From contig CAVYIM010000003.1 in the NCBI GenBank assembly GCA_963768655.1, forward strand, positions 544,001 through 608,000: a stretch of DNA of 64,000 nucleotides, given 5' to 3'. This document shows, one piece after another, positions 29,386 through 42,333 of the stretch (positions are counted from its first letter, which is position 1; every line of letters starts with the position of its first letter). Position numbers and translations under genes: made by a program. The notes below the pieces were generated by a model, which saw only the letters and a list, made by a program, of their open reading frames with translations, had not been told where the DNA came from and did no database searches. The stretch comes from an uncultured Chloroflexia bacterium (lineage in GTDB: Bacteria > Chloroflexota > Limnocylindria > Limnocylindrales > CSP1-4).

Positions 29386-31412
29386 CGGTCCTTCGCTCCT
29401 GCAGCGATCCGGCTCGACAGGAGGGTTTGAAGCTCATCCCGCACTGCAGTAGCCGAGAAGATGGTCAGCCGATCCCCGGTCTCCAACACAACATCGCCGC
29501 GAGGCACGATCAACCGATCACCCCGCGCGATCGACACGAGCACGCTGTCGCGTGGCCACTTGGTGTCCGCGACGCGCTTTCCGGCAAGGACCGATCCGGC
29601 TGTGATTTCAGCTTCGAGCATCGACCCCGTCGATCCGACCGACCGCACCTGGCGGACGTTGGCTGCTAGGGCGCGGCGGTACTCCGCCATCGCATCGCGC
29701 GCCGAGAGAACGCCAGCGAGCCGATCATCCGCGACGACCGGAGCCCAAGAGCGATGCCCGTCGGCGAGAACTCCGAGCGCGTCGTCCAGCGAGTCGTCGG
29801 CGGAGATCACAGCTCCGTCCAGCGCCAGCCCGCCTACTTTCGCTGTCGGATCGGCCGCTTCGAGTACGGCCAGGTCGACGGTTCCCCGAACTGCGCCGTG
29901 CCGGTCGACCACGGGCGCTCCGGGTACGGCGGCGGTTACGAGCCTGGCAATCGCTTCAGCCACCGTCAGATCCACGCTGAGGACCGCTCGCGCCGCCCGT
30001 GCTGCGTCGCCCGCTGGGATTGCCGCCATGAGCGGGAGGGCGAACCGGAACCGGTGGGCGGGCAATTCGGCGCGGCTCCGGATCTGAGAGGCATAGATCG
30101 AGCGGTCGCCCACGATCAGGGTGGCGATCCCGATCGCGAGCATCGCCGGGGCGAGCATCGCCAGGCTGTCGGTCATCTCGGCGACCATCAGCATCACCGC
30201 GAGAGGAGCCCTTGCCACGCTCCCGAACAGAGCCATCATCGCCACGATGACGAAGGGCGACGGATCAACCGGAACCCCCGGCGCGACCGGTTCGAGCAGT
30301 CTCCAGATCCCGGCGCCGAGCAGTCCGCCGATGACCATTCCCGGACCGAAGATGCCGCCGGAGCCGCCTGAGCCGATCGAGAGCGAGGTCGCCAGGATCT
30401 TGGCGAACGGCAGCGCCAGGATCACCCACAACGGCAGGCCGAGAAGCGTCGTCCGGTCGAATCCCGCCTGGACCCAGCCGTAGCCGGTGCCCAACACACC
30501 CGGCAGCGCGAGGCCAAGGCAGCCAACGGCGAAGCCGGCGATGGCGGGACGAAGCTCGCGTGGAAGCTGCCAGCGCTTGAACCAGCGGGTCAGCCCGTAG
30601 AAGCTCCCGATGTAGAGCCGCCCGACCACCCCGCACGCCAGGCCGATCAGTGAGTAGTAGGCGAGCTGGCGCGGATCGGTGAACCCGGCCCCGGCCACAG
30701 GGCCGAATATCGGGTTGAAGCTGATGATCGCGCCGAAGATCGAGAAGGCGACGATCGAGCCGACGAAAGCCGGCACCAGGGCATCCGACTCCACGTCGTC
30801 GCGGTAAGGGATCTCGACGGCGAGGACCGCGCCGCCGAGCGGTGCGCGGAAGATCGCCCCGATGCCGGCGCCGATGCCTGTGCTCACCGCGATCCGAGCA
30901 TCCCGGGCGTCGAGATCGAGAACCCGCGCCAGTAACGAACCGAACCCGGCGCCGATCTGCGCCGTCGGGCCCTCGCGGCCACCGGAGCCGCCGGAACCTA
31001 TCGTGATGGCTGATGCGACCAGCTTGATCAGCGGAATCCGGGCGCGGATGCGGCGCGGCCCATGGTGGAAAGCGGCGATGGCCGCGTCGGTGCCGTGCCC
31101 CTCGGCCTCGGGCGCGAGCCTGAAGACGACGATCCCGGATATGAGGCCGCCGAGGGCAACGACGAGCGGGATCGCCCACGGCCGCGCGGCGTCGGTGATG
31201 GGCCGAGCGCCCTCTCCGAGCGGTGATGCGGGCGTGAACCCGGCCAGCGTGCCGAGGAAGAACCGCGTACCGAGGTCCAGCGCTACGAAGAAAAGGGCCG
31301 CGCCCAGGCCGCTTATCACGCCGATGATCGCGCCGAGCACGATCCATTTGCGCAGATAGGCCGTCGAGCGGACGCGAAGGCGAACCGACCGCAGAAGCGC
31401 TGCGCCGTTCAC
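29382..31412 (-). CDS. ClC chloride channel/antiporter with CBS pair and TrkA-C domain
   Basis: GHGTD, GGSGGREGP, GGIFGP motifs; C-terminal VPRGD..L..GDRL. Confidence 0.9.
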   Translation of the reverse strand: MNGAALLRSVRLRVRSTAYLRKWIVLGAIIGVISGLGAALFFVALDLGTRFFLGTLAGFTPASPLGEGARPITDAARPWAIPLVVALGGLISGIVVFRLAPEAEGHGTDAAIAAFHHGPRRIRARIPLIKLVASAITIGSGGSGGREGPTAQIGAGFGSLLARVLDLDARDARIAVSTGIGAGIGAIFRAPLGGAVLAVEIPYRDDVESDALVPAFVGSIVAFSIFGAIISFNPIFGPVAGAGFTDPRQLAYYSLIGLACGVVGRLYIGSFYGLTRWFKRWQLPRELRPAIAGFAVGCLGLALPGVLGTGYGWVQAGFDRTTLLGLPLWVILALPFAKILATSLSIGSGGSGGIFGPGMVIGGLLGAGIWRLLEPVAPGVPVDPSPFVIVAMMALFGSVARAPLAVMLMVAEMTDSLAMLAPAMLAIGIATLIVGDRSIYASQIRSRAELPAHRFRFALPLMAAIPAGDAARAARAVLSVDLTVAEAIARLVTAAVPGAPVVDRHGAVRGTVDLAVLEAADPTAKVGGLALDGAVISADDSLDDALGVLADGHRSWAPVVADDRLAGVLSARDAMAEYRRALAANVRQVRSVGSTGSMLEAEITAGSVLAGKRVADTKWPRDSVLVSIARGDRLIVPRGDVVLETGDRLTIFSATAVRDELQTLLSSRIAAGAKDR

Positions 31413-31834
31413 GCGAAGGGCTCGAACGACTGTGCCAGCTTGGCGATCGCTTCCGCCTCGATGGGCGTAACGGCCGCCGACGCGAGCACGGCAGCGAGGT
31501 CACGGCTGCGCCGCTCCAGGATACGGGTACGCAGCTCGCGGCCCGCCTCGGTCAATCGAACGCAAACCACGCGTTTGTCGAGGTCGTCTTTGTCGGTCCG
31601 CACGAGGCCGCGCGCTTTGAGGCGCGAGACGACACGACTCGCCGGCGAGGCATGGGCTCCGACGCGACTGGCGATCTCCCCAACGGCTGCGCCATCGCCG
31701 TCCTCACCGACAACGAACAAGACGCGCCACTGCATGAATGTGAGTTCGGAATCAGTGGCAGCTATCGCTCGGGCGGTGATGGCGACTGCGCCCACGACCA
31801 GGCGTTCGAGCACGGCCACCAGAGGATCTCGCAT
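31409..31834 (-). CDS. MarR family transcriptional regulator
   Basis: LTFMQWRVL, SRVVSRL..RGLV...DKRVV.VRLT..G; leaderless after TACACT. Confidence 0.88.
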   Translation of the reverse strand: MRDPLVAVLERLVVGAVAITARAIAATDSELTFMQWRVLFVVGEDGDGAAVGEIASRVGAHASPASRVVSRLKARGLVRTDKDDLDKRVVCVRLTEAGRELRTRILERRSRDLAAVLASAAVTPIEAEAIAKLAQSFEPFA

Positions 31835-31850
31835 AGCGCCCAGTGTAGCG

Positions 31851-31878
31851 CAGGTATATTCCGGTCGGAATATACCTG
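31851..31878. promoter_or_regulatory. Perfect 13-2-13 palindrome, putative MarR operator
   Basis: CAGGTATATTCCG-GT-CGGAATATACCTG immediately upstream of the marR -10. Confidence 0.7.
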
Positions 31879-31919
31879 GACCCGTCGCGCTCAATACCGC
31901 ACGGCCCCCGTAGTGCGGC

Positions 31920-31956
31920 CGAGTGCCGACAGCCGAGGTTCGCATGCCGGAGGATT
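31920..31956 (+). mobile_element. Putative remnant of a large serine recombinase C-terminus running into the antisense tRNA (RVPTAEVRMPEDL-VELQGFEP)
   Basis: Same peptide pattern and CGAGTGCCG start as the remnant before the second tRNA-Ala. Confidence 0.45.
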
Positions 31957-32032
31957 TGGTGGAGCTACAGGGATTCGAACCCTGGACCTCCTGCATGCCA
32001 TGCAGGCGCTCTCCCAGCTGAGCTATAGCCCC
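31957..32032 (-). tRNA. tRNA-Ala(GGC)
   Basis: GGGGCTATAGCTCAGCTGGGAGAGCGCCTGCATGGCATGCAGGAGGTCCAGGGTTCGAATCCCTGTAGCTCCACCA, 76 nt, encoded CCA. Confidence 0.97.
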
Positions 32033-32336
32033 ACGCGCCCGCGAATGGTACAGCAACGAGGCGAACTTGCGCGATATCGGCGATGCGAGAAGGCTCGGGA
32101 GGCGGCGGCTGTGGGCCATCTCAGAAACGAACCAGGGGCCCGTTTCCGGGCCCCTGGTGTTCCCCTCGATTCCCCCTCGTACCTTGACTACCGCCGGGCC
32201 CCTGGCCCCTCACCACCGGCGGCCCCCTCAGCCTCCCCGTGCGTCCTTCGTTGCGGGCATCCAGACGGAGCCCGCCCGGCGCGTGTGACGGCGCCGCTGA
32301 AGCAGGACTGAGGCCTCCGGGGTTACGCTTCGGCCG

Positions 32337-33119
32337 ATGGCGACGACGACCGAATGGCGCGCTTCTCTTCGACTGGCGGACGGGCGCCTCGAATGCACCA
32401 TCCGGCGCTCGCCTCGAGCCAGGCTCCTGCGACTGACCGTCGACCCACAACACACCGCCGTCGTCACCATCCCGTCCCGGGCCGCACGTAACAAAGGCGA
32501 GGCGGAGCGGCTGGCCACAGCGTTCGTGGCCGAGCGAGAGGGCTGGCTGCGGGGTCATCTCGAGCGACAGGCCCGCCAGATAGCGGCGCTGGATGCGCTG
32601 GGGCCTCTCCGCGACGGAGGCACTTTCCTGTTCCGCGGGGAGCCGCACCGGCTCCGTATCGTGGCCGAGCCCGGGCGGCGTCGCACGGTCGTGACGCGCG
32701 AGGGCGCAGACGCGGGCGACGAACTGGTCGTGCGCCCCGGCGGCGGGGAGCGGCGTGAGCTGGCCGCCATCCTCGAGGCGTGGTTGCGGGTGCGGGCCCG
32801 ATCCGCCATCGAGCGTGAGATAGAGCGGCACGCCCCGGCTCTCGCGGTCGAGCCGGCCTCGGTGACGGTTCGGGACACCCGAAGCCGGTGGGGGAGCTGC
32901 TCCCGCGCGCGCCGGCTGTCCTTTTCCTGGCGGCTTGTCCTCGCCCCGCCGGAGGCGCTCGAGACCGTGGTCGTCCACGAGCTGGCGCACCTGCGGGTAT
33001 TCGGCCACGGGCCGCAGTTCTGGGAGCTGGTCGCCGGCCGGCGACCGGATCATCGGCGCTGGCGACGCTGGCTGCGAGACCACTCGGTGGAGTTGCACGG
33101 AGCCCTGGCGGCCGCCTGA
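32337..33119 (+). CDS. YgjP/M48-like metal-dependent hydrolase (DUF45)
   Basis: SRWGSCS, LSFSWRLV.AP, VVHELAHL, HGPQFW; TACGCT -10 before ATG. Confidence 0.9.
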   Translation: MATTTEWRASLRLADGRLECTIRRSPRARLLRLTVDPQHTAVVTIPSRAARNKGEAERLATAFVAEREGWLRGHLERQARQIAALDALGPLRDGGTFLFRGEPHRLRIVAEPGRRRTVVTREGADAGDELVVRPGGGERRELAAILEAWLRVRARSAIEREIERHAPALAVEPASVTVRDTRSRWGSCSRARRLSFSWRLVLAPPEALETVVVHELAHLRVFGHGPQFWELVAGRRPDHRRWRRWLRDHSVELHGALAAA

Positions 33120-33323
33120 TCCGCGCCGCTCGCGGCTTCGGGCCGTTCGCCCGAAGGTCGTCGCCCGATCCCCGCCCCTCGCGGCTTCGGGCCCCGGTCG
33201 CCGTTCCGCAGGTGCCGACGGCCCTTCCCTCTCTTGCGCGGGCGGCCTAGAGTGACTCCGAGCCGATCGATCCGGACCGAACGGCCGCGGGCGCGCCGGC
33301 GAGCAGGCACAGAGGAGCCCGAG

Positions 33324-33974
33324 ATGCCAGTCGTGACCATCTCCCGCCAGTTCGGTGCTGGTGGCTCGAGCGTTGCGGAGATCGTCGCCGCCGAGCTGCA
33401 CGCCGAGGTCGTCGACAAGAAGCTCATCGAGGAAGTGGCGCGACGGCTCCAGATCTCCACGACCGACGTGGCAGCCGAGGACGAGCGGCCCCGGCCGCTG
33501 CTCGAGCGCCTGGTCCGTTCCTTCTCCACGCTGGAGCCGACGATGGGCGCCGGCTGGTCGCCGCCGTATCCGGACCCGCTCTTCGACCCGCGCAACGCGA
33601 TCATCGAGCTCACCGAGCAGGTCATCCATGAGGTCGCGGACGGCGGCAACGTCGTCATCGTCGGCCGCGGCGCCGGCTTCTGCCTGCGCGACCGGCCAAA
33701 CGTCTTTCGGGTGTTCCTGCGCGCTCCGGAGGCGGTGCGAGTCAAGACGCTGATGGAACGGTTCGGCCTCAGCGAGGCCGAGGCACGGCGCAAGATGCAC
33801 GAAACCGACGCCAACCGGGCCGCCTACACGCACCAGCTCTACAAGAAGGACTGGTGCGACCCGGCCGAGTACGACCTGATCGTGAACACGGGTCGGTTGG
33901 GATACCAGGCCACGGCCGAACTCATCCTGCGCGGTCTGCGCGAGCCCGCCCGGGTCGCGATGCCCGTCGGCTGA
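33324..33974 (+). CDS. Cytidylate kinase-like family protein
   Basis: VTISRQFGAGG, VVIVGRG, D..RA.Y, YDLIVNT; GAGGAG RBS. Confidence 0.88.
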   Translation: MPVVTISRQFGAGGSSVAEIVAAELHAEVVDKKLIEEVARRLQISTTDVAAEDERPRPLLERLVRSFSTLEPTMGAGWSPPYPDPLFDPRNAIIELTEQVIHEVADGGNVVIVGRGAGFCLRDRPNVFRVFLRAPEAVRVKTLMERFGLSEAEARRKMHETDANRAAYTHQLYKKDWCDPAEYDLIVNTGRLGYQATAELILRGLREPARVAMPVG

Positions 33975-34017
33975 AGCTCGAACCGCCGCCGGAACTCCGC
34001 TCGACAGGGACCGGGCC

Positions 34018-34218
34018 TCAGTTCCCCGGCGCCCCGGCGGGCATGACCCAGGCCGGCCCGGCCTGGGGAGCCTGATCCCACTGGGCGTTGCTCAGCGGCG
34101 CCCGCGAGAGCGTGATGAAGCTCCAGGCCACGAAGAGGGTGAGTACCCAGATCACCACGACCACGTCGAAATGCCGGGCCAGTTCTGCTCGCATGGCGAA
34201 CCCTACGAAGCGCTTCAT
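34018..34218 (-). CDS. Small single-TM hypothetical protein
   Basis: One clear hydrophobic helix; start uncertain. Confidence 0.4.
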   Translation of the reverse strand: MKRFVGFAMRAELARHFDVVVVIWVLTLFVAWSFITLSRAPLSNAQWDQAPQAGPAWVMPAGAPGN

Positions 34219-34523
34219 CGGGCCGGTTCGTGCCCGGGCCTGCAGCGGAAGGTTCGACCGACAGAGGCTCGCCAGACAGGGCCCCGGGACCTCGATTCCC
34301 AATGTCCGGCGGCCCTAAGTAAACCGCTTATCTATGAATATCCGGGTCATTATTACGACATAAGTGCCCGATTCTGGACTACCCGGCGGGTTCGAACGAG
34401 CCGGGACCGGCCGCCCGGAAGGATGGCCGCTCGAACGAAACCGGTCAGGCGCCTGCGCCGCGCCGCGGATCGGCCGCTACGGCCGGGCCCCGCGCGTCGA
34501 GCGCCACGGCCCGGCGTCGCGCG

Positions 34524-35468
34524 TCAGGGGACCGCGACGGCCTCCGGTTCGACATCGAAGAGGCCCGGCACGGACAGATACCGCTCCCCGGTGTCGTAGG
34601 TGAAGGCCAGGATGCGGGCACCGTCCTTGATCTCGGGCAGCTTCCTGGCCACGGCAGCAAGTACCGCCCCCGACGAAACACCGATCAACAGCCCTTCCTC
34701 GCGCGCCGCCCGAACCGCGTAGCTGAACGCGTCCGGGGCCGCCACCGCGATGACCCCGGTTACGGCATCGGCGTGGTAGTTGCCGGGCACGAACCCCGCG
34801 CCGATGCCCTGGATGGGATGCGGGCCGGGGATACCGCCGCTCAGGACCGGGGAGAGCTCGGGCTCGACCGCGAAGACCTGCAGTCGCGGCCAGCGCGGCC
34901 GGAGCACCTCGCCGATGGCCGTAACGTGCCCGCCCGTCCCGACGCCGGCGAAGACGTAGTCGAGGCCATCGGGGAAGTCGCGGGCGACCTCTTCGGCCGT
35001 GGTCCGCTTGTGGACCTCGAGGTTCGCCGGGTTGTCGAACTGCATCGGCAGCCACGCGCCCGGGGTCTCGGCCACGATCTCGCGGGCCTTGGCGATGGCG
35101 CCCTTCATGCCCAGCTCACGTGGCGTCAGCTCGAAGGTCGCGCCGTAGGCGGCCATCAGCTTGCGTCGCTCGACGGAGAAGGACTCGGGCATGACGAGGA
35201 TCAGCTTGTAGCCCTTCACGGCGGCGACGAGGGCGAGCCCGACTCCGGTGTTGCCCGAAGTCGGCTCGACGATGATGCTGCCCGGCTTCAGGACGCCGCG
35301 CTTCTCGGCGTCTTCGATCATCGACAGCGCGATGCGGTCCTTGATCGAGCCGCCGGGGTTCTGCCGTTCGAGCTTGACCCAGACCTCGACGCGCGGGTCG
35401 AAGAGTTTGTTGATGCGAAGTTCGGTCGTGTTGCCGATGGTTTCGAGGATGCTGTTGGCCTTTGCCAC
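34524..35468 (-). CDS. cysK: Cysteine synthase A
   Basis: [11 protein letters not shown] (PLP Lys), [29 protein letters not shown]; GTG start after AGGAG. Confidence 0.95.
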
Positions 35469-35551
35469 GGGTATCTCCTGCGAGTTGGTTGGGACACGCC
35501 AAACCGGGGTCCGGCCGGCGCCGGTCCTTCGAAGATGGGTTGGATTCGAAC

Positions 35552-36439
35552 CTAGATGACGAAGTCGGGCGCCTCGAAGTCGGCCCGGCCCTGCCGGACG
35601 TGGACCTCGCTGCGTTGGTAGACGATCGAATTGGGCGGGACGCTGGAGGTGATCCAGGTGTTGCCGCCGATGACGCTCCCCTCGCCGATGACCGTCTCGC
35701 CGCCCAGAATCGTGGCGTTGGCGTAGATGACAACGTCGTTGCCGATCGTCGGGTGGCGCTTGGTCGAGGCTAGGGACTTGGTCACGGAGAGCGCGCCAAG
35801 GGTCACGCCCTGGTAGAGCTTCACGTTGTTGCCCAGCACGGCCGTCTCGCCGATGACGATGCCGGTGCCGTGGTCGATGACGACGGGGTGGCCCAGGGTC
35901 GCTCCCGGGTGGATGTCGATGCCGGTTCGCTCGTGCGCCCATTCGGTCAGGACGCGGGGCAGCAGCGGCACTCGCAGCTCGTAGAAACGATGGCCGATGC
36001 GGTGGGCGGCGATGGCGAGGAATCCCGGATAGGCCAGGATCACCTCGTCCACGCTCTCGGCCGCGGGATCGCCTCGTTCGATCGCCGTCGCGTCGACCAA
36101 CAACTGGCGATGGATCTCGGGCAGCATCTTGAAGAAAGCGGCGGCGATCCGGGCCGGATCGTCGATCTCGCCCTCCAGCGGCCGGAGCAGCGACCGCAGC
36201 TCGGTCGCGGAGGCGTCGAGCGCGTCTCGGATGTCTCCCGGCGTGGCGTAGGTCTGCTCCGCGGTCTGTGGGAAGAGCGTGTCGAGCAGGGTCCGCAGCC
36301 ACGTCCCGACTCGGGCTTTTGCCAGCCGCGCCTGGGTGTCGTTGGCGAGCATGTCGTAGACGCGGCCCGCCAGCCCGTCCAGCGGGTCACTGGATGGCTT
36401 GGTCGTCTTCGCGGTGTGGATTGATCTGGGGAGAGCCAT
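35552..36439 (-). CDS. cysE: Serine O-acetyltransferase
   Basis: [46 protein letters not shown]. Confidence 0.93.
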
Positions 36440-36597
36440 GTGTTCCTCGGTGGCGTTTCTCGCGGGAGCTGCGGATCGGGGCGCGGGCGGCTCGGGCAGG
36501 GCTGGTGGGGAAGGCCGAGCGGGCAGTCGGTGCCGGCCAGATTCGGGCCTGCGGACGGCGGCTCGACGCGAGCGCGGCGGCGTCCGCGAGGAGTAAC

Positions 36598-36628
36598 AAA
36601 AAGCCGCGGGTCCTGTAGGAACCGCGGC
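36598..36628 (-). terminator. Intrinsic terminator in the cysE leader (attenuator)
   Basis: GCCGCGGTTCC-TACA-GGACCCGCGGC followed by TTTTTG on the minus strand. Confidence 0.75.
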
Positions 36629-36674
36629 CCCTGGGCGACTCGACCCGCTCCCGGTGGGAGCGCGAGACAGCCTG

Positions 36675-36734
36675 CTACCTCCTGCGGCGGGGCCGCCGCC
36701 AGGGACAGAGGCAGTTGTGGTTGTGCGAGTCCAT
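36675..36734 (-). CDS. Putative cys leader peptide MDSHNHNCLCPWRRPRRRR (leaderless)
   Basis: ATG 6 nt after CATGAT -10 with TTGACG -35; two Cys codons; directly precedes the terminator. Confidence 0.65.
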   Translation of the reverse strand: MDSHNHNCLCPWRRPRRRR

Positions 36735-36740
36735 GTCCGA

Positions 36741-36770
36741 ATCATGCGGGCTCGAGTCGATAGCCGTCAA
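36741..36770 (-). promoter_or_regulatory. Sigma-70-type promoter TTGACG-N18-CATGAT of the cys operon
   Basis: Near-consensus hexamers with plausible spacing. Confidence 0.6.
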
Positions 36771-37011
36771 GCGACTGTCGCCTGAAGACCCGCTGAGGGC
36801 GGATCCAGATCGCACCGTGGAACGAGACGGGTGAGCGCGGCCGCGGTCCGTCGCTGCCTCGGTGTGCCGGAAGAGGTCGCGCAGCAGAAGACAATTCGAG
36901 GCGGCGGGATCCGTGATAACTTGGATCAACGCCGGTTGACCATTGTCTCCGGCCTGCCGTCCGCGGGTCGTCGCCGTGGCCGGCATCCGCACGAACCCGG
37001 AGAGGTGGTGG

Positions 37012-37818
37012 ATGTCTCACGTAATCAGCAGGCACGGACGGATCCTGCTCATCCTGCTGGCGGTCGCCGCTATCGCCCTGGCCGCCTGCTCGGGCAGCTC
37101 CGCCTCGGCGACTCCTGCCCCGGGGGGTAACGGCACACCTGCGGCTGCCAACACGCCGGCGGGCGGTGGCAGCGCCCTGGCTCCCGTCTCGAGTGCCAGC
37201 GGCGGCACCTCCGCGCTGAACGGTGCGGCGGCCGCGCTGTCGAACATCAGCAGCTACAAGTTCAAGATGACCGTCGCAGGCGGCGATTGGGGACAGACCC
37301 TCTCGGCCTTCAGCGGCGCCGCCACGACCGGCAACACGCCCACCGTCATCAGCGGCACGATCATTCTCAAGCCCGCCAGCGCGATGGACCTCACCGTTGG
37401 TGTCATGCACGTGATCGAGGTTGGCGGCAATGACTACCTCGATTTGACCGGAAGCGGCACCTTCATCTCATCGCCGGCTACCACTAGCATGGACGCGTTC
37501 GCGCCGTCGACGATGTTCTCCTCGATGATCGATCCCGAAACCATGAGCGATTTCACTGAGGTCGGGACCGAGCCGAAGAACGGCGTCACCGCCGACCACT
37601 ACCAGGGCACCCAGGCGGCGCTCGCCGATCTGGGCCCGCTCACGAATGTCCAGGGCGCGACCTGGACGGCCGACCTCTGGATCGCCACCGATGGCGGCTA
37701 TCCGGTCAGCATGGCGATCGTGGGCACGGCCGCAGACAACACCGTCGCCTACGAGATACTCTTCGACATTACGAACGTCAACGATCCGGCGAACACGGTC
37801 ACAGCTCCCAATGTCTGA
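37012..37818 (+). CDS. Lipoprotein (possible LppX/LolA-like fold)
   Basis: Lipobox LAAC, S/T/P/G-rich linker, paralogous to next gene. Confidence 0.75.
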   Translation: MSHVISRHGRILLILLAVAAIALAACSGSSASATPAPGGNGTPAAANTPAGGGSALAPVSSASGGTSALNGAAAALSNISSYKFKMTVAGGDWGQTLSAFSGAATTGNTPTVISGTIILKPASAMDLTVGVMHVIEVGGNDYLDLTGSGTFISSPATTSMDAFAPSTMFSSMIDPETMSDFTEVGTEPKNGVTADHYQGTQAALADLGPLTNVQGATWTADLWIATDGGYPVSMAIVGTAADNTVAYEILFDITNVNDPANTVTAPNV

Positions 37819-38033
37819 TGGCCCCGTCGGATCGGGCCGCGATGGTCGCGGTGGGGTAGAGGCATTCGAGGCCTCGGTCATTCGGCCGGGACCTGTTCCG
37901 GACCAGACGCCGGGCTGCCACGTGCCGCCTGACGAGACAACGAGGCGTGTGCGGCCGGTGAGCCGGCCGCCCCGCTAGTTTCCAATCAAGGCCGGCTCGT
38001 TCGGGCCCGGCCACCGCCCCCGGAGGAGGGAGA

Positions 38034-38807
38034 TTGATGATCGGATCGGCAAACAGGACGACTCGAAGCCTCGTGGCCGCGAGTCTGGCATTCGCTCTCG
38101 TCGTCGCTGCATGCGGCTCTTCGACGAAGCCCACAATCGGAATTCCCGTCAGCGGGAACAGCACCAACGCCGGAAACAACCCCGGCGGCAGCGGCTCACT
38201 CACTTCCGGCCTGACCTCGAATCTCGACGCTCTCGACAGCTATCAGTTCTCCTGGCAGATGACGACGGCCGCAACCGGCGCCGGCGCGAGCGGGACGGGG
38301 TCGTTCGGAATCTCGGGGACGGTTGTCAACAAGCCGACCCAGTCGTACGAGATCAACGACGCCGGCATGATGGAGATCATCGTCATCGGCACCCAGGGTT
38401 GGATCTCCATGGACAATGGGAGCACCTGGATGGCGAGCTCGGATTACTCGAACGGGAGTTCCGATCTGAGCTCCCTGCTGCCGGACTCGATGTACGGCTC
38501 CGACTTCGACTCCAACGCGGGTGACTTCAAGGTCGTCGGCGAGGAGACCAAGAACGGCATCGACTGCATCCACTACTCGGCCAGCACGGACCTTGGCGCG
38601 GGCGGTGCGATCCTCGGCATCGCCGGCAACTTCTCGGCCGACCTCTGGATCGCCAAGAGCGGCGACTATCCCGTCAGCGGCTTCTACGGCTACAGCGCCT
38701 CGGCGGGCGGACAATCCGGCGCCTGGGGCTACTCGTTCGACATTACCCACGTCAACGACGCGTCCGCCAACGCGATCACCGCGCCGGCCAACGTGACCAC
38801 GCCATAG
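38034..38807 (+). CDS. Lipoprotein, paralog of the preceding gene
   Basis: Lipobox VAAC; shared ADLWIA..G.YPVS and FDIT.VND..N..TAP motifs. Confidence 0.75.
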   Translation: MMIGSANRTTRSLVAASLAFALVVAACGSSTKPTIGIPVSGNSTNAGNNPGGSGSLTSGLTSNLDALDSYQFSWQMTTAATGAGASGTGSFGISGTVVNKPTQSYEINDAGMMEIIVIGTQGWISMDNGSTWMASSDYSNGSSDLSSLLPDSMYGSDFDSNAGDFKVVGEETKNGIDCIHYSASTDLGAGGAILGIAGNFSADLWIAKSGDYPVSGFYGYSASAGGQSGAWGYSFDITHVNDASANAITAPANVTTP

Positions 38808-38826
38808 GCGCATTTCGGGCAAATCG

Positions 38827-38859
38827 AAGAGGCCCCGGCCGTTTGGTCGGGGCCTCTTT
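38827..38859 (+). terminator. Intrinsic terminator
   Basis: GAAGAGGCCCCGGCC...GGTCGGGGCCTCTTT hairpin. Confidence 0.7.
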
Positions 38860-38909
38860 CTATGTCCGCGGAGACAACGAGCTTGCCGGGCGCCTCGCTC
38901 CCTGCGTAA

Positions 38910-38943
38910 TGACCTGAGGTCAGTATATGATGACCCGAGGTCA
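38910..38943. promoter_or_regulatory. Two TGACC-N3-GGTCA palindromes flanking a TATGAT -10; putative TetR operators
   Basis: TGACCTGAGGTCA (38910-38922) and TGACCCGAGGTCA (38931-38943). Confidence 0.75.
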
Positions 38944-38965
38944 CCAACCGGAAAGGAGCACCGGG

Positions 38966-39679
38966 ATGACGGGAACTGGCGCACGCGGCGACGCGGGCGA
39001 CGCGCCATCCGCCCCAACGGCACGGCGGACAGGCCGCGAGCTGGCTGCCGTAACCCCGGGCCGGCGGCGGCTGGCGCCCGACGATCGCCGGGCCGAGTTG
39101 GTCGAAGCCGCCATCGCGGTGTTGCGCGCCGGTGTCGACGAGGGCAACTGGGTCGCGGAGGTCACGCGCGCCGCGGGTGCGGCCAAGGGGACGTTCTACG
39201 TGTACTTCCCGTCCTGGGAGGACATGCTCGCCGTGGTCCGCGGGCGGCTCATTGACGAGTGCAACGCCCCGATCCGACACGCTCTCGCCACCGCTGACTC
39301 CGTCGACTGGTGGGCCGTCCTGGAGGACCAATGCGGGCGCTTCGTCGACGTAGTGAACGAGTTCGGCCGGCACCACGCCGTGATCTTCCATGCGGCCCTG
39401 CCGCACGATCCGGTCGGGGCCTCGAGGTCAGGTCCGGCAGTGCTCGCCGTGGCAATCGAGCGAGGGATTGCCGAGGGGTTCTTTGCCCCGGTCGACGTCG
39501 AGGCCGCAGCTCAGTTGCTCTTTGCCGCCGTCCACGCCGCGGCCGACGCGGTGCTCGCCGGCGGAGAGCGTGAGCGGTGGATCTCGGCCTGCACTGAACT
39601 CGCCCGCAGCTACCTCATGCCAGCGGCGCAGCCGATCGACAGGCTTCTCCAGCCACCCGAAGAAACTCCGCCGGCATGA
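38966..39679 (+). CDS. TetR/AcrR family transcriptional regulator
   Basis: VAEVTRAAGAAKGTFYVYFPS HTH; AAAGGAG RBS. Confidence 0.88.
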   Translation: MTGTGARGDAGDAPSAPTARRTGRELAAVTPGRRRLAPDDRRAELVEAAIAVLRAGVDEGNWVAEVTRAAGAAKGTFYVYFPSWEDMLAVVRGRLIDECNAPIRHALATADSVDWWAVLEDQCGRFVDVVNEFGRHHAVIFHAALPHDPVGASRSGPAVLAVAIERGIAEGFFAPVDVEAAAQLLFAAVHAAADAVLAGGERERWISACTELARSYLMPAAQPIDRLLQPPEETPPA

Positions 39680-41115
39680 CGGCTCGTCAGGATCTCACCT
39701 ACCGGCGGCGGATGCTCGTCCTCGCCATCTGCTGCCTGAGCCTGTTCATGGTGGGCTTGGACACCACGATCGTGAACATCGCCCTGCCCACGATCCAGCA
39801 GGACCTGCGTGCCGGGATCTCCGGCCTGCAATGGACTATCGACGCCTACGCCCTCGTCCTCGGCAGCCTGCTCATGCTCTCGGGCTCCATGGCGGATCGA
39901 TTCGGGCGGCGCCGGGTCTTTCTTGCCGGCCTGGCCCTGTTCGGCACCGCCTCGCTGCTCTGCAGCCTGGCCCCCAGCATCGATTGGCTCATTGCGTTCC
40001 GAGCGATCCAGGGCATCGGGGGTTCGATGCTGAACCCGGTGGCCCTCTCGATCGTCAGCAACGTCTTCACCGACGATCGCGAGCGGGCTCGGGCGGTCGG
40101 CGTCTGGGCCGGGGTGTTCGGGCTCAGCATGGCGCTCGGTCCGTTGGTAGGCGGGCTGCTCATCGGCGCCTCGCTGGGCTGGCGGTCCCTTTTCTGGATC
40201 AACGTGCCCGTCGCGCTGGTGGCGGTGTTCCTCACCTGGCGCTTCATCCCGGAGTCCAGAGCTGCCCACCCGCGGCGAGTCGACCCGGTGGGCCAGGGGC
40301 TCATCATCGGACTGATCGCGGCCTTGACATACGCCATCATCGAGGGGCCGGACTCCGGCTGGACGTCGCCCACGATCCTCGCCTGTGTCGCCATCGCGGC
40401 TCTCGTCCTGATCGGCCTCCTGGTCTACGAGCCACGCCGCCGTGAACCCCTGCTGGAACTGCGGTTCTTCGCCAGCGTGCCGTTCTCGGGGGCGTCGGCC
40501 ATCGCGCTAATCGCCTTCGCCGCAGTGGGCGGCTTCGCCTTGATGACCACCCTATATCTCCAGGAAGTGCGCGACTACTCGGCGCTGCAAGCCGGGCTCC
40601 TCTTCCTGCCCGTGGCCGCGGCGGCCATTTTGTCGGGTCCTATCTCGGGCCGACTGGTCGCCAGCCGCGGCCCGCGAGCCTCGCTGATCGGGGCCGGCGC
40701 GGCCCTGACGCTCTGCGCGGTGATGCTCACGGGGCTGACCGCGACGACGTCGGTCGGCTGGCTCGTCGCTTCCTACGTCGTCTTCGGGCTCGGTTTCGGC
40801 ATGGTCAGCGCCCCGGTCAACAACACCGCGCTCTCCGGCATGCCGCGATCGCAATCGGGCGTGGCGGCCGCGATCGTCTCGACCGGCCGGCAAGTCGGCC
40901 AGACCCTCGGCGTCGCCGTGGCAGGCGCGCTCCTCGCCTCGGGCCTCCACGGCTCGCTCCGCACGGGGCTCGCTCCGGCCAGTCAGCCGGTCTGGTGGGT
41001 CATGGCCGGCTTCGGTGTCGTCGTTGTCGCGCTCGCCATCGTAACCACCACCACATGGGCACGCGGTACGGCTGCCGCGGTGGGCCGGGAAGCGGCCGGC
41101 GAGGCGGGCTCCTGA
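39676..41115 (+). CDS. DHA2-type (14-TM) MFS efflux transporter
   Basis: LDTTIVNIALP, G.MADRFGRRR, RAIQGIGG, FWINVP. Confidence 0.92.
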   Translation: MTARQDLTYRRRMLVLAICCLSLFMVGLDTTIVNIALPTIQQDLRAGISGLQWTIDAYALVLGSLLMLSGSMADRFGRRRVFLAGLALFGTASLLCSLAPSIDWLIAFRAIQGIGGSMLNPVALSIVSNVFTDDRERARAVGVWAGVFGLSMALGPLVGGLLIGASLGWRSLFWINVPVALVAVFLTWRFIPESRAAHPRRVDPVGQGLIIGLIAALTYAIIEGPDSGWTSPTILACVAIAALVLIGLLVYEPRRREPLLELRFFASVPFSGASAIALIAFAAVGGFALMTTLYLQEVRDYSALQAGLLFLPVAAAAILSGPISGRLVASRGPRASLIGAGAALTLCAVMLTGLTATTSVGWLVASYVVFGLGFGMVSAPVNNTALSGMPRSQSGVAAAIVSTGRQVGQTLGVAVAGALLASGLHGSLRTGLAPASQPVWWVMAGFGVVVVALAIVTTTTWARGTAAAVGREAAGEAGS

Positions 41116-41170
41116 GCTGATGCGTCGTGCCGGTTCGGGGTAGTGAAGTTGGCACCTGGGGAAGGTGGTG

Positions 41171-41232
41171 TGGCGGAGCTGGGCCGACTGACTGCGAACC
41201 GGCCGGCCGGATCGATCCGGAGTTGTCTGGCA
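41171..41232 (+). repeat. att-like direct repeat, copy A
   Basis: TGGCGGAGCTGGGCCGACTGACTGCGAACCG...GGATCGATCC; colinear with copies B and C. Confidence 0.7.
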
Positions 41233-41463
41233 CCAATCTGCCGCGCCCGGCGCACGTGACCTGGCCGGCGTGACGAGATGGGCTTCTTGGGGGGAGGACG
41301 GCCGCCCGGCCAACGCTGCCTGCCAGCGAATAGCTGGCAGGCGCTACGATTGCCGAGCCACTCCTCTGGGTGGGGGAGAGGAGGAACGGTTCGTCGTTGG
41401 TCCGAGGGCGCGGTTCATCCGATTGATGCGCCGCTCGCTCTCTCCGGAGCTTAGGAGACTGCG

Positions 41464-42333
41464 ATGCCGTTTGGAATCGGGGAGCATTGGGTCAAGGCGC
41501 AAGGTCTGGTCGTCGCGAGCCGCGAGATCGGCAGCAAGGGCCTGGGAACGTGGCGCGAGGAGTGGGTGGTCGAGGTCCACACAGCGGAGGGGGAAACGTT
41601 CCGGTCCCCGATCAAGTGGCCGCTGGTCGAACATGATGATTTCAGTTTCATTCCGTGCTCAGAGGGCGAGACGGTCAGAATCGAGTACGACCCCAAGAAC
41701 CACAACCTCCGCTGGGACAAGTCAGATCCGGCGAGAAACATGCTCGCGAAGACGCCCTCCGACGAGCTTGCGCGGCAGAACCAGGCTTTCAACGACGCGT
41801 TGGCGGGACGGACTCCCTCTGCGTCAGGTCCGTCTGTCGCCGGGCTGGATCCGGATCTACAGGAGCTTGTGAACCTTCAGGCCAGGGCGGGCGCTCAGGC
41901 ACCGGCCGCGGACGGCAAGGTGGGCCTCGACTTCCAGTTCGATGCCAGCGGCCGGCCGGCAGCCGGTCAGGTGGAGAACGTGGTCGGCGCGGTTGCCAGC
42001 GGCCAGATGCGGACGATCAGGGGCAAGGCGGACGAGATTCTTGCGACCGGGACTCACGGCACCGCGGTGATCACCACGGCCTCGCCGCTCGGCAAGACGG
42101 TCCGCGACATCAACCCGAACGCCGATCCCTCGCGTCTCAACGACCCCATGTGGCTTTTCACACTCGAGGTCAGTCTGGCCGGCCAACAGCCATTTCCGGC
42201 GGTCTTCGGTCATCGTGTGCCGCTGGCCAAGCTGGCTTCCGTCGCTCCGGGCGTGAAGCTGGCCGTCGCGGTCAACCCGGCGAACCCCAACAACGAGGTC
42301 GCGATCGACTGGGACAAGTCGCCGCTCTCCTGA
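41464..42333 (+). CDS. Hypothetical protein (two small beta-rich domains)
   Basis: 289-aa ORF, AGGAG RBS, typical codon usage. Confidence 0.65.
   Translation: MPFGIGEHWVKAQGLVVASREIGSKGLGTWREEWVVEVHTAEGETFRSPIKWPLVEHDDFSFIPCSEGETVRIEYDPKNHNLRWDKSDPARNMLAKTPSDELARQNQAFNDALAGRTPSASGPSVAGLDPDLQELVNLQARAGAQAPAADGKVGLDFQFDASGRPAAGQVENVVGAVASGQMRTIRGKADEILATGTHGTAVITTASPLGKTVRDINPNADPSRLNDPMWLFTLEVSLAGQQPFPAVFGHRVPLAKLASVAPGVKLAVAVNPANPNNEVAIDWDKSPLS

Follow-up and report, generated by a model that had tools for sequence, protein, structure and literature searches.

Ahead of cysE and cysK, on the minus strand of a 64-kb stretch of DNA from an uncultured member of the Chloroflexota (the window, meaning the whole stretch analyzed), lies a leader that encodes a 19-codon peptide with two cysteine codons and ends in an intrinsic terminator. 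From its sequence and its conservation, we consider it likely that this leader attenuates transcription by way of the ribosome, in response to charged tRNA-Cys, and thereby controls cysE-cysK. The first-pass annotation of the window had described a promoter, an ATG 6 nt after the −10 box, a short frame, a terminator, and a complementarity between leader and terminator ahead of these genes, and all of these were recovered at their places on the minus strand. The design that it had read from them, a short frame with Cys codons and an antiterminator competing for the 5′ arm of the terminator, came through every comparative test for which that annotation had asked. The leader is not a lone element; it is one of three homologous putative attenuators in this genome, the other two of which carry Met or Lys codons and precede metY and dapB.

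The predicted promoter is the sole promoter-like site within positions 36300–37100, for which shuffled sequences lead one to expect 0.0 such sites. No Shine-Dalgarno-like sequence lies in the 6 nt between the −10 box and the start ATG of the frame; transcription presumably starts at or beside this ATG (36734), and the mRNA is presumably leaderless, since the frame begins so soon after the −10 box. The Cys codons follow the pattern C-x-C at codons 8–10 of the 19 and are followed by nine further codons. The segment GCGGCCCC, which lies among the latter, is exactly complementary to GGGGCCGC (36631–36624), with a predicted duplex energy of −18.3 kcal/mol, and GGGGCCGC overlaps 5 nt of the terminator 5′ arm. 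The terminator stem itself has seven G-C pairs, one mismatch, and three more pairs, closed by a 4-nt loop, so that a G+C-rich hairpin with a U-run stands between the frame and the first gene, as in an attenuator. A simple terminator scanner reported no terminator-like site in 36300–37100; the mismatch within the stem is the presumable reason. Counted over the two strands of the window, GCGGCCCC has 14 copies, where 17 are expected. The chance of meeting it on the right strand of a given 100-nt leader is about 1%, and that of meeting any 8-mer of the terminator arm is a few percent; in a single sequence the complementarity is therefore only suggestive, and it is its conservation in relatives that lifts it beyond chance.

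The leader DNA was matched in 24 of the 24 other genomes of the genus, the best-kept stretch being that from the Cys codons to the terminator. We aligned 26 cysE leaders from 25 genomes, one of which contributes two. The −35 box reads TTGACG in 24 leaders and TTGACC in 2, and its distance to the start is nearly constant (ungapped in 22 of 26 rows, with a 1-nt indel in L005, L006, L011, and L019). An open frame is found in every leader, starting at one aligned column with ATG (19) or GTG (7), exactly 21 nt before the TGC codon. At the middle codon of the triad, CTC (Leu) and TCC (Ser) occur in 8 leaders each and TTC (Phe) in the other 10, and residues 2–7 are free to vary, bar one Ser codon that belongs to the helix P1 described below. 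The triad starts 14 nt upstream of the antiterminator segment in 16 leaders; in two leaders this distance is 16 nt, and in eight, including that of the window, it is 17 nt. A 3-nt indel after the triad preserves the reading frame, and the stop codon is TAG in 24 of 26. L017 and L022 carry a frame-shifting 2-nt insertion together with a G-to-T change that gives TGA near the old stop, and their frame has a third Cys codon (MNSF.FACSCPCGGPAV*). Downstream of the leader lies cysE in 25 of 26 cases, the 26th being truncated by the end of its contig. Judged from the alignment, the leaders behave like translated frames in which the length and the Cys codons count and the peptide sequence does not; signs of coding constraint are apparent in all 26 leaders. 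Conservation of the frame and of both Cys codons among relatives, on which the first-pass annotation had staked its reading, is complete (26/26). Weak DNA matches to the leader query in a sister family with 1.1-Mb genomes (2/16) covered 31 nt, proved to be the spacer part rather than the leader, and were set aside.

The predicted secondary structure is conserved as well. On the 26-leader alignment, 92.4% of the 776 cells of the whole terminator state are paired, compared with 35–52% in slid controls, and seven pairs have changed on both sides, a number equaled by 8 of 500 shuffles. The terminator stem is 97.1% paired, with compensatory changes. Further upstream, the hairpin P2/P3 keeps the antiterminator segment locked into a local stem, CGGCG/CGCCG (−25.9 kcal/mol; P3 alone, −10.8 kcal/mol), and the columns of P3 and of the upper part of P2 (five counted pairs) are 97.7% paired and nearly invariant. 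The hairpin P4 is 88.9% paired, with two pairs changed on both sides. The long-range helix P1, which closes the domain of the off state, is 80.6% paired, three of its six pairs having changed on both sides. An RNAalifold consensus of the 26 leaders gave a mixture of both states and was not used; the named helices were tested instead.

The alternative helix between GCGGCCCC and GGGGCCGC would exclude the terminator, and all eight of its pairs can form in 26 of 26 leaders; seven are invariant, and one G-C pair becomes G-U in four. The four G (GGGG) ahead of the G-C stem are also invariant, and in the terminator state they could pair with the U-tract only. Since the antiterminator requires these four bases and the G-C stem does not, their invariance supports the antiterminator.

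To simulate the ribosome, the transcripts of all 26 leaders were cut before the 3′ arm of the terminator and the footprint was masked; cut transcripts replaced equilibrium folding of the full-length leader, which cannot discriminate between the states. With Cys8 in the A site, the complete antiterminator was predicted in 26 of 26 leaders at every leading edge tried, from A+7 to A+13. It was predicted in 3 of 26 without a ribosome, and in none with the ribosome at the stop codon or two codons past Cys10. Folding with and without a ribosome mask, as the first-pass annotation had suggested, thus yields the switch that it had proposed. In this model, the sensor codons are the last positions at which a stalled ribosome leaves the antiterminator free.

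In the scheme that we infer for transcription start, leader translation, termination, and the response to cysteine, transcription would begin at or beside ATG 36734, and the first ribosome would translate the 19-codon leader while RNA polymerase advances. With ample Cys-tRNA, the ribosome would cross and unwind GCGGCCCC and halt at the TAG 19 nt further, covering GCGGCCCC. After its release, the Cys-codon region would re-pair with the frame end (P2/P3) and sequester GCGGCCCC; the terminator hairpin would then form, and transcription would end at the U-run. With scarce Cys-tRNA, the ribosome would stall with Cys8, or less surely Cys10, in the A site and block P2. It would leave GCGGCCCC just past its leading edge, free to pair with GGGGCCGC as the latter emerges. 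This antiterminator would remove five bases from the 5′ arm of the terminator, resulting in read-through into cysE-cysK. Cys codons are absent from cysE (295 codons) and from cysK (314 codons), so both should be translatable during a cysteine shortage.

Table 1. The predicted leader, its RNA elements, and the genes downstream, in order of transcription
Feature	Positions in the window	Strand	Remarks
Promoter	36741..36770	minus	−35 TTGACG (36770–36765), 18-nt spacer, −10 CATGAT (36746–36741); promoter scan
Leader frame, 19 codons and TAG	36675..36734	minus	MDSHNHNCLCPWRRPRRRR*; ATG 36734–36732, TAG 36677–36675; translation
Long-range helix P1	36637..36731	minus	GACUCG (36731–36726, codons 2–3) with CGAGUC (36642–36637); fold
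Hairpin P2/P3	36667..36715	minus	Cys-codon region with AGGAGGUAGCAGG at the frame end; minimum-energy fold
Sensor triad	36705..36713	minus	TGC-CTC-TGT (Cys8-Leu9-Cys10); TGC and TGT invariant in 26/26
Antiterminator segment	36689..36696	minus	GCGGCCCC (36696–36689); in frame as part of Arg-Arg-Pro-Arg
Hairpin P4	36646..36662	minus	GCGCUCCC / GGGAGCG, in the interval from frame to terminator; fold
Intrinsic terminator	36595..36631	minus	GGGG, stem 36628–36603, then UUUUUGUU (36602–36595); −21.4 kcal/mol
Untranslated spacer, terminator to cysE	36440..36594	minus	155 nt; C-rich, poorly conserved
cysE, serine O-acetyltransferase	35552..36439	minus	295 aa; GAGGA 5 nt before ATG
cysK, cysteine synthase A	34524..35468	minus	314 aa; GTG start, AGGAG upstream

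This leader is part of a wider family. A covariance model of the cysE leader (R1) matched 29 of 151 genomes of the class and a second, weaker copy in the genome of the window. Its new matches retain GGCGGCCCCG and the terminator arm and carry other codons. A second model built from these (R2) matched 45 of the 151 genomes (33/44, 10/50, 1/49, 0/6, and 0/1 by family); these class-wide tallies include the unpublished genome G154, which was used for counting only. In a sample of the phylum, R2 matched 6 of 151 genomes, all of this class, and none of the 136 others. The sister family with 1.1-Mb genomes was matched in 0 of 6 genomes by either model, and the genome of the window contains exactly three copies. 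In L139 and L141, R1 had matched a terminator-like hairpin only, and both were dropped; L133, where R1 also matched the hairpin only, is a lysine-type leader under R2. After removal of duplicates, 95 distinct leaders were left.

Across these 95 leaders the antiterminator segment is kept, and the triad, which in the paralogs lies 14 nt upstream of it, tracks the downstream gene. All 26 cysE leaders have C-x-C. Among the leaders of metY, which encodes O-acetylhomoserine sulfhydrylase (TIGR01326, 672 bits against a cut-off of 495), 31 of 33 have at least two Met in the seven residues before Arg-Pro, with triads M-C-M, M-S-M, M-V-M, M-A-M, and M-Q-M; the remaining two are a mis-parsed M-C-M and one C-I-C-M. 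At least two Lys are present in each of the 27 dapB leaders (K-S-K, K-K-K, K-A-K, K-R-K, and M-K-K). Codons for the pathway's end product thus occupy the critical place in the frame: Cys for cysE-cysK, Met for metY, and Lys for dapB. In 31 of 33 metY leaders and 27 of 27 dapB leaders, no more than about 200 nt separate the terminator from the downstream match. In the metY type, the terminator stem covaries: one pair is G-C in 14 leaders and A-U in 9, and the pair after it is G-C in 20, C-G in 2, and A-U in 1. Where the arm pairs with the antiterminator it is invariant in this type, the antiterminator being paired in 99% of cells. In the lysine type (n = 27), the last antiterminator pair is U-A in 13 leaders, U·G in 8, C-G in 1, and mismatched in 5; in leaders before the other cysteine and methionine genes it is C-G in 64 of 65. 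From these data we lean toward the view that the leaders of cysE, metY, and dapB are paralogs built on a single portable attenuator chassis, whose specificity was reset in evolution by exchanging a three-codon triad (C-x-C, M-x-M, or K-x-K). On the same balance, this chassis would comprise the antiterminator GCGGCCC(C/U), which reads Arg-Pro in frame, together with the terminator arm (G/A)GGGCCGC and the U-run.

In the genome of the window, the metY leader (L112/L162; G000:C9:234922-235063, minus strand) reads MNARTSRHRENSRQASCLRGSMMSMPGRPRSAEDGV*, with Met-Met-Ser-Met just before the antiterminator. The dapB-dapA leader (L185; G000:C9:227063-227207, minus strand) reads MFVQILAKPKSKRRRPSREARP*, with Lys-x-Lys-x-Lys; the dapB product scores 121 bits (cut-off 122), and dapA, which follows, 282 bits (cut-off 206). 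A metY leader was found in all nine R2-sampled genomes among the other 24 of the genus, with M-S-M or M-V-M, and other genera have M-C-M. In another genus of the family, two leaders (L124 and L193) carry C-C-C or R-C-M ahead of a beta-carbonic-anhydrase-like gene (Pfam Pro_CA, 42 bits), which hints at a role of this gene in sulfur or cysteine metabolism. A further leader from another genus of the family, L126, has C-S-C before a cysK/CBS-like gene; antiterminator and hairpin are present and the U-run is absent (GGCCUCCGUGUGU), and the switch may act differently in that genome. In another family of the class, one intergenic region (fetched twice, as L136 and L175) holds two back-to-back leaders: one, with M-C-M, points to a small SCO4226-like gene, and the other, with T-T-M-A-M, points to a gene of the threonine synthase family (ThrC), which might serve methionine rather than threonine synthesis. 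The plus-strand R2 matches with T-T-M-A-M were read by eye and stand outside the 95. Some M-C-M leaders precede genes of unknown role. A tail of the form GUU(A/U)CC(U/C)C(C) (GUUACUCCUCG; positions 36585–36600 of the window, minus strand) is conserved after the U-run in all three leader types. Pairing of this tail with the frame-end segment AGGAGGUAG (−11.9 kcal/mol) was not significant, 15% of random pieces being as stable.

Several observations weigh against an attenuator of this kind. Of the stems in which the first-pass annotation had suggested looking for covariation, the terminator stem covaries and the antiterminator helix does not among cysE leaders, where seven of its eight pairs are invariant and covariation is consequently uninformative; nor does it covary among metY leaders. 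Its covariation support is therefore weak and comes from a single pair, the U-A of 13 lysine-type leaders. This sole compensatory change occurs in a paralogous lineage and may be one event, and 5 of the 27 lysine leaders are mismatched at the same pair. Leaders of the same type are inherited copies, so that the agreement between codons and operons amounts to about three lineages, with constancy inside each, and not to 86 independent cases.

The folding model has weak points of its own. That a stall at Cys-Leu-Cys frees the antiterminator, as the first-pass annotation had it, appears robust for the first Cys and applies to the second only with a short leading edge: with Cys10 in the A site, the antiterminator was predicted in 22, 19, 10, and 0 of 26 leaders as the leading edge lengthens. 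Stalls at the three or four codons preceding Cys8 act alike in the model, and each cysE leader offers only two sensor codons. The full-length leader always folds as the terminator, masked or not, so the model depends on co-transcriptional kinetics; a terminator as the full-length fold, whatever is masked, is usual for attenuators. Of eight metY examples, five were predicted to form the antiterminator in the absence of a ribosome and three with the ribosome at the stop codon; for the metY and dapB types, whose stop is further from the antiterminator, the off state is less clear. Finally, the organism is uncultured and known from an assembled genome only.

One further point against the attenuator is that TGC and TGT are never interchanged at the Cys codons of the 26 leaders, which makes a constraint at the RNA level possible. 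Elsewhere in the family, sensor codons do change synonymously: AAG is replaced by AAA once, and TGT by TGC at the middle Cys of M-C-M. The lack of synonymous change in the cysE leaders, together with the near invariance of the nucleotides of GGCGGCCCCGCCGCAGGAGGUAGC, which exceeds the needs of a peptide-only constraint, would suit a riboswitch or a protein-binding leader that senses a metabolite or regulator directly, the short frame being incidental. However, start, frame, and stop position are preserved through indels, and the codons found on one RNA core are Cys, Met, or Lys depending on the pathway, a match that one ligand pocket would leave unexplained. Between the three leader types, moreover, the variable parts are unlike, and a scan of positions 30000–42000 with Rfam 15 at E values up to 1 gave no family in 36400–36800, T-boxes and riboswitches included, its sole genuine match being a tRNA gene elsewhere. 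We therefore hold this explanation to be extremely unlikely. T-box leaders and the S-adenosylmethionine (SAM; S-box) and lysine (L-box) riboswitches likewise end transcription prematurely ahead of Cys, Met, and Lys genes and let it proceed under shortage. They sense uncharged tRNA or a metabolite through structured RNA, whereas here the sensor would be a translated frame, in a leader that matches none of these families.

The distance of 155 nt between terminator and cysE raises the possibility that the frame is a small gene in its own right, encoding a polybasic peptide and ending in a terminator of its own, and that cysE-cysK is transcribed from a separate promoter in the spacer. A wetland metatranscriptome run (contigs; 5% of sampled words) yielded, at a likeness of at least 85%, contigs mostly of relatives that cover 36556–36731 and much of cysE, with none over 36380–36555 and none above 36731. 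That the RNA-library contigs cover the leader and not the spacer is weak support for a separate gene, since such contigs cannot reveal RNA starts, ends, or levels; the uncovered spacer is also the unconserved part, DNA carry-over is possible, and we draw no conclusion from them. The spacer, on the other hand, contains no promoter-like site, the N-terminal half of the peptide is unconserved, and RNA helices fix the nucleotides that encode its basic tail. In addition, the leader precedes cysE in 25 of 26 cases, the last one lying at a contig end, and homologous leaders precede metY and dapB. A separate gene thus seems highly improbable to us, as improbable as a riboswitch.

An attenuator of the proposed kind has close relatives in function. 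The description of the classical leader-peptide attenuator is partly textbook knowledge. The leader resembles the trp, his, leu, thr, ilv, and pheA attenuators of E. coli and Salmonella and the trp and ilvB attenuators of Corynebacterium and Streptomyces in having a short, presumably translated frame with codons for the end product. It also shares with them a terminator before the first gene and an antiterminator that competes for its 5′ arm, and the position of the ribosome, which decides between the two in those systems, would do so here (10.1101/834739; PMC1262725, in their available text). Unlike in these systems, the amino acid here would be Cys, and Met or Lys in the paralogs, the lineage is Chloroflexota, and the start is probably leaderless. 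Further differences are that there are two sensor codons spaced C-x-C, that the antiterminator strand lies inside the coding frame, and that three leaders of different specificity share one homologous core.

The closest parallels for cysteine are mycobacterial. In the available text of Canestrari et al. (10.1101/834739), polycysteine leaderless frames (Ms5788A, and Rv2334A before cysK1-cysE) control translation by unmasking a Shine-Dalgarno sequence; a transcriptional reporter did not respond to cysteine and termination was unused. These authors state that no attenuation by an upstream open reading frame had previously been described for cysteine, and the accessible part of PMC13236596 cites the mycobacterial system as translational. 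As in mycobacteria, a short frame with Cys codons, here presumably leaderless, precedes cysteine genes, including a cysK-cysE pair, and stalling would be the signal. The mycobacterial Cys codons are consecutive and C-terminal and pair with the Shine-Dalgarno region of the next gene, according to the same text (10.1101/834739). In contrast, the present leader has Cys codons in mid-frame, a covarying terminator, and an antiterminator, and no sequence relationship to the mycobacterial frames. A consecutive run of Cys codons at the 3′ end of the frame is not found here, C-C-C occurring in one relative only (L124), nor does the Cys tract pair convincingly with the downstream Shine-Dalgarno sequence. 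By its sequence, the host is a member of the Chloroflexota, class Limnocylindria, and neither an actinobacterial nor a mycobacterial relative; close CysE relatives (78–96% identity) come from Chloroflexi, Candidatus Limnocylindrales, or Candidatus Limnocylindria.

This precedent nevertheless suggests a further explanation, in which a Cys-sensing frame acts on translation or through Rho, in the mycobacterial manner, and hairpin and U-run are not the regulated step. Stalling would then either unmask the cysE ribosome-binding site or keep Rho off the C-rich spacer. In the available text of 10.1101/834739, the leaderless frames known to sense Cys are translational and do not use termination. The spacer is indeed C-rich and G-poor (C 49% and G 28%, versus 35% and 34% for the same strand of the window), like a Rho loading site, and the relative L126 has the hairpin without a U-run. 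However, the Cys-codon region and the ribosome-binding region of cysE pair with −10.0 kcal/mol, a stability equaled or exceeded by 63% of 300 pieces taken at random from the window. The spacer can be aligned among the closest relatives only, whereas hairpin, U-run, and antiterminator complement are conserved across the class and the stem covaries. We consider this explanation, in both its translational and its Rho-dependent form, very unlikely. Independently of it, the resemblance of the spacer to a Rho loading site makes a second, Rho-based layer of control possible.

Cys leader peptides have been predicted before in Actinobacteria. The available text of Seliverstov et al. 2005 (PMC1262725) lists such leaders for the cys operons of Mycobacterium and Propionibacterium acnes and for cbs of Bifidobacterium longum. 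Like the present leader, they are predictions of a Cys-codon frame before cysteine genes by comparative genomics; unlike it, they have, in that text, no conserved terminator hairpin, and Rho was proposed in place of the classical pair of terminator and antiterminator seen here. In its accessible part, Naville and Gautheret 2010 (PMC2965389) describe leader peptides as known from Proteobacteria and Actinobacteria only, with the addition of a new Firmicutes his case. A full-text literature search, with subscription-only papers outside its reach, returned no terminator-type Cys leader, no Met or Lys leader, and none in the Chloroflexota. The suggestion of the first-pass annotation that a two-Cys transcriptional attenuator in this lineage may be undescribed agrees with the searchable full texts, which contain no published description of one.

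Leader-peptide attenuation is documented, in these searchable papers as far as their text is available, for a few amino acids and chiefly in Proteobacteria and Actinobacteria. The version known for cysteine is translational and mycobacterial; here a cysteine version would come with a terminator/antiterminator pair, in a phylum for which they print no description of such control. If our reading is correct, cysteine, methionine, and lysine would have in these leaders their first leader-peptide attenuators of the terminator type, and the leaders would form a ribosome-read regulon in an uncultured class of the Chloroflexota. The sensor triad appears separable from the switch, and the shared core suggests that specificity evolves by swapping two or three codons, so that engineering in the same way may be possible; the leader would then be a natural, reprogrammable ribosome-sensing switch. 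For the annotation of uncultured soil and peat Chloroflexota, cysE-cysK, metY, and dapB-dapA appear to be wired to tRNA charging and not to riboswitches or T-boxes.

The genes downstream of the leader are assigned by profile. The cysE product scores 157 bits with NF041874 (cut-off 150) and 166 bits with TIGR01172, which is under the cut-off of that profile; the cysK product scores 366 bits with TIGR01139 (cut-off 351), and 83 nt separate the two genes. A divergent gene for a predicted lipoprotein lies upstream and a cytidylate-kinase-like gene converges on cysK from downstream, so the operon should consist of cysE and cysK alone. The predicted product of the divergent gene (37012–37818, plus strand) has a lipoprotein-type signal sequence (MSHVISRHGRILLILLAVAAIALAAC...) and matches no Pfam family. 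A tRNA gene at 31960–32032 on the minus strand (Rfam tRNA, 66.7 bits) is unrelated to the leader.

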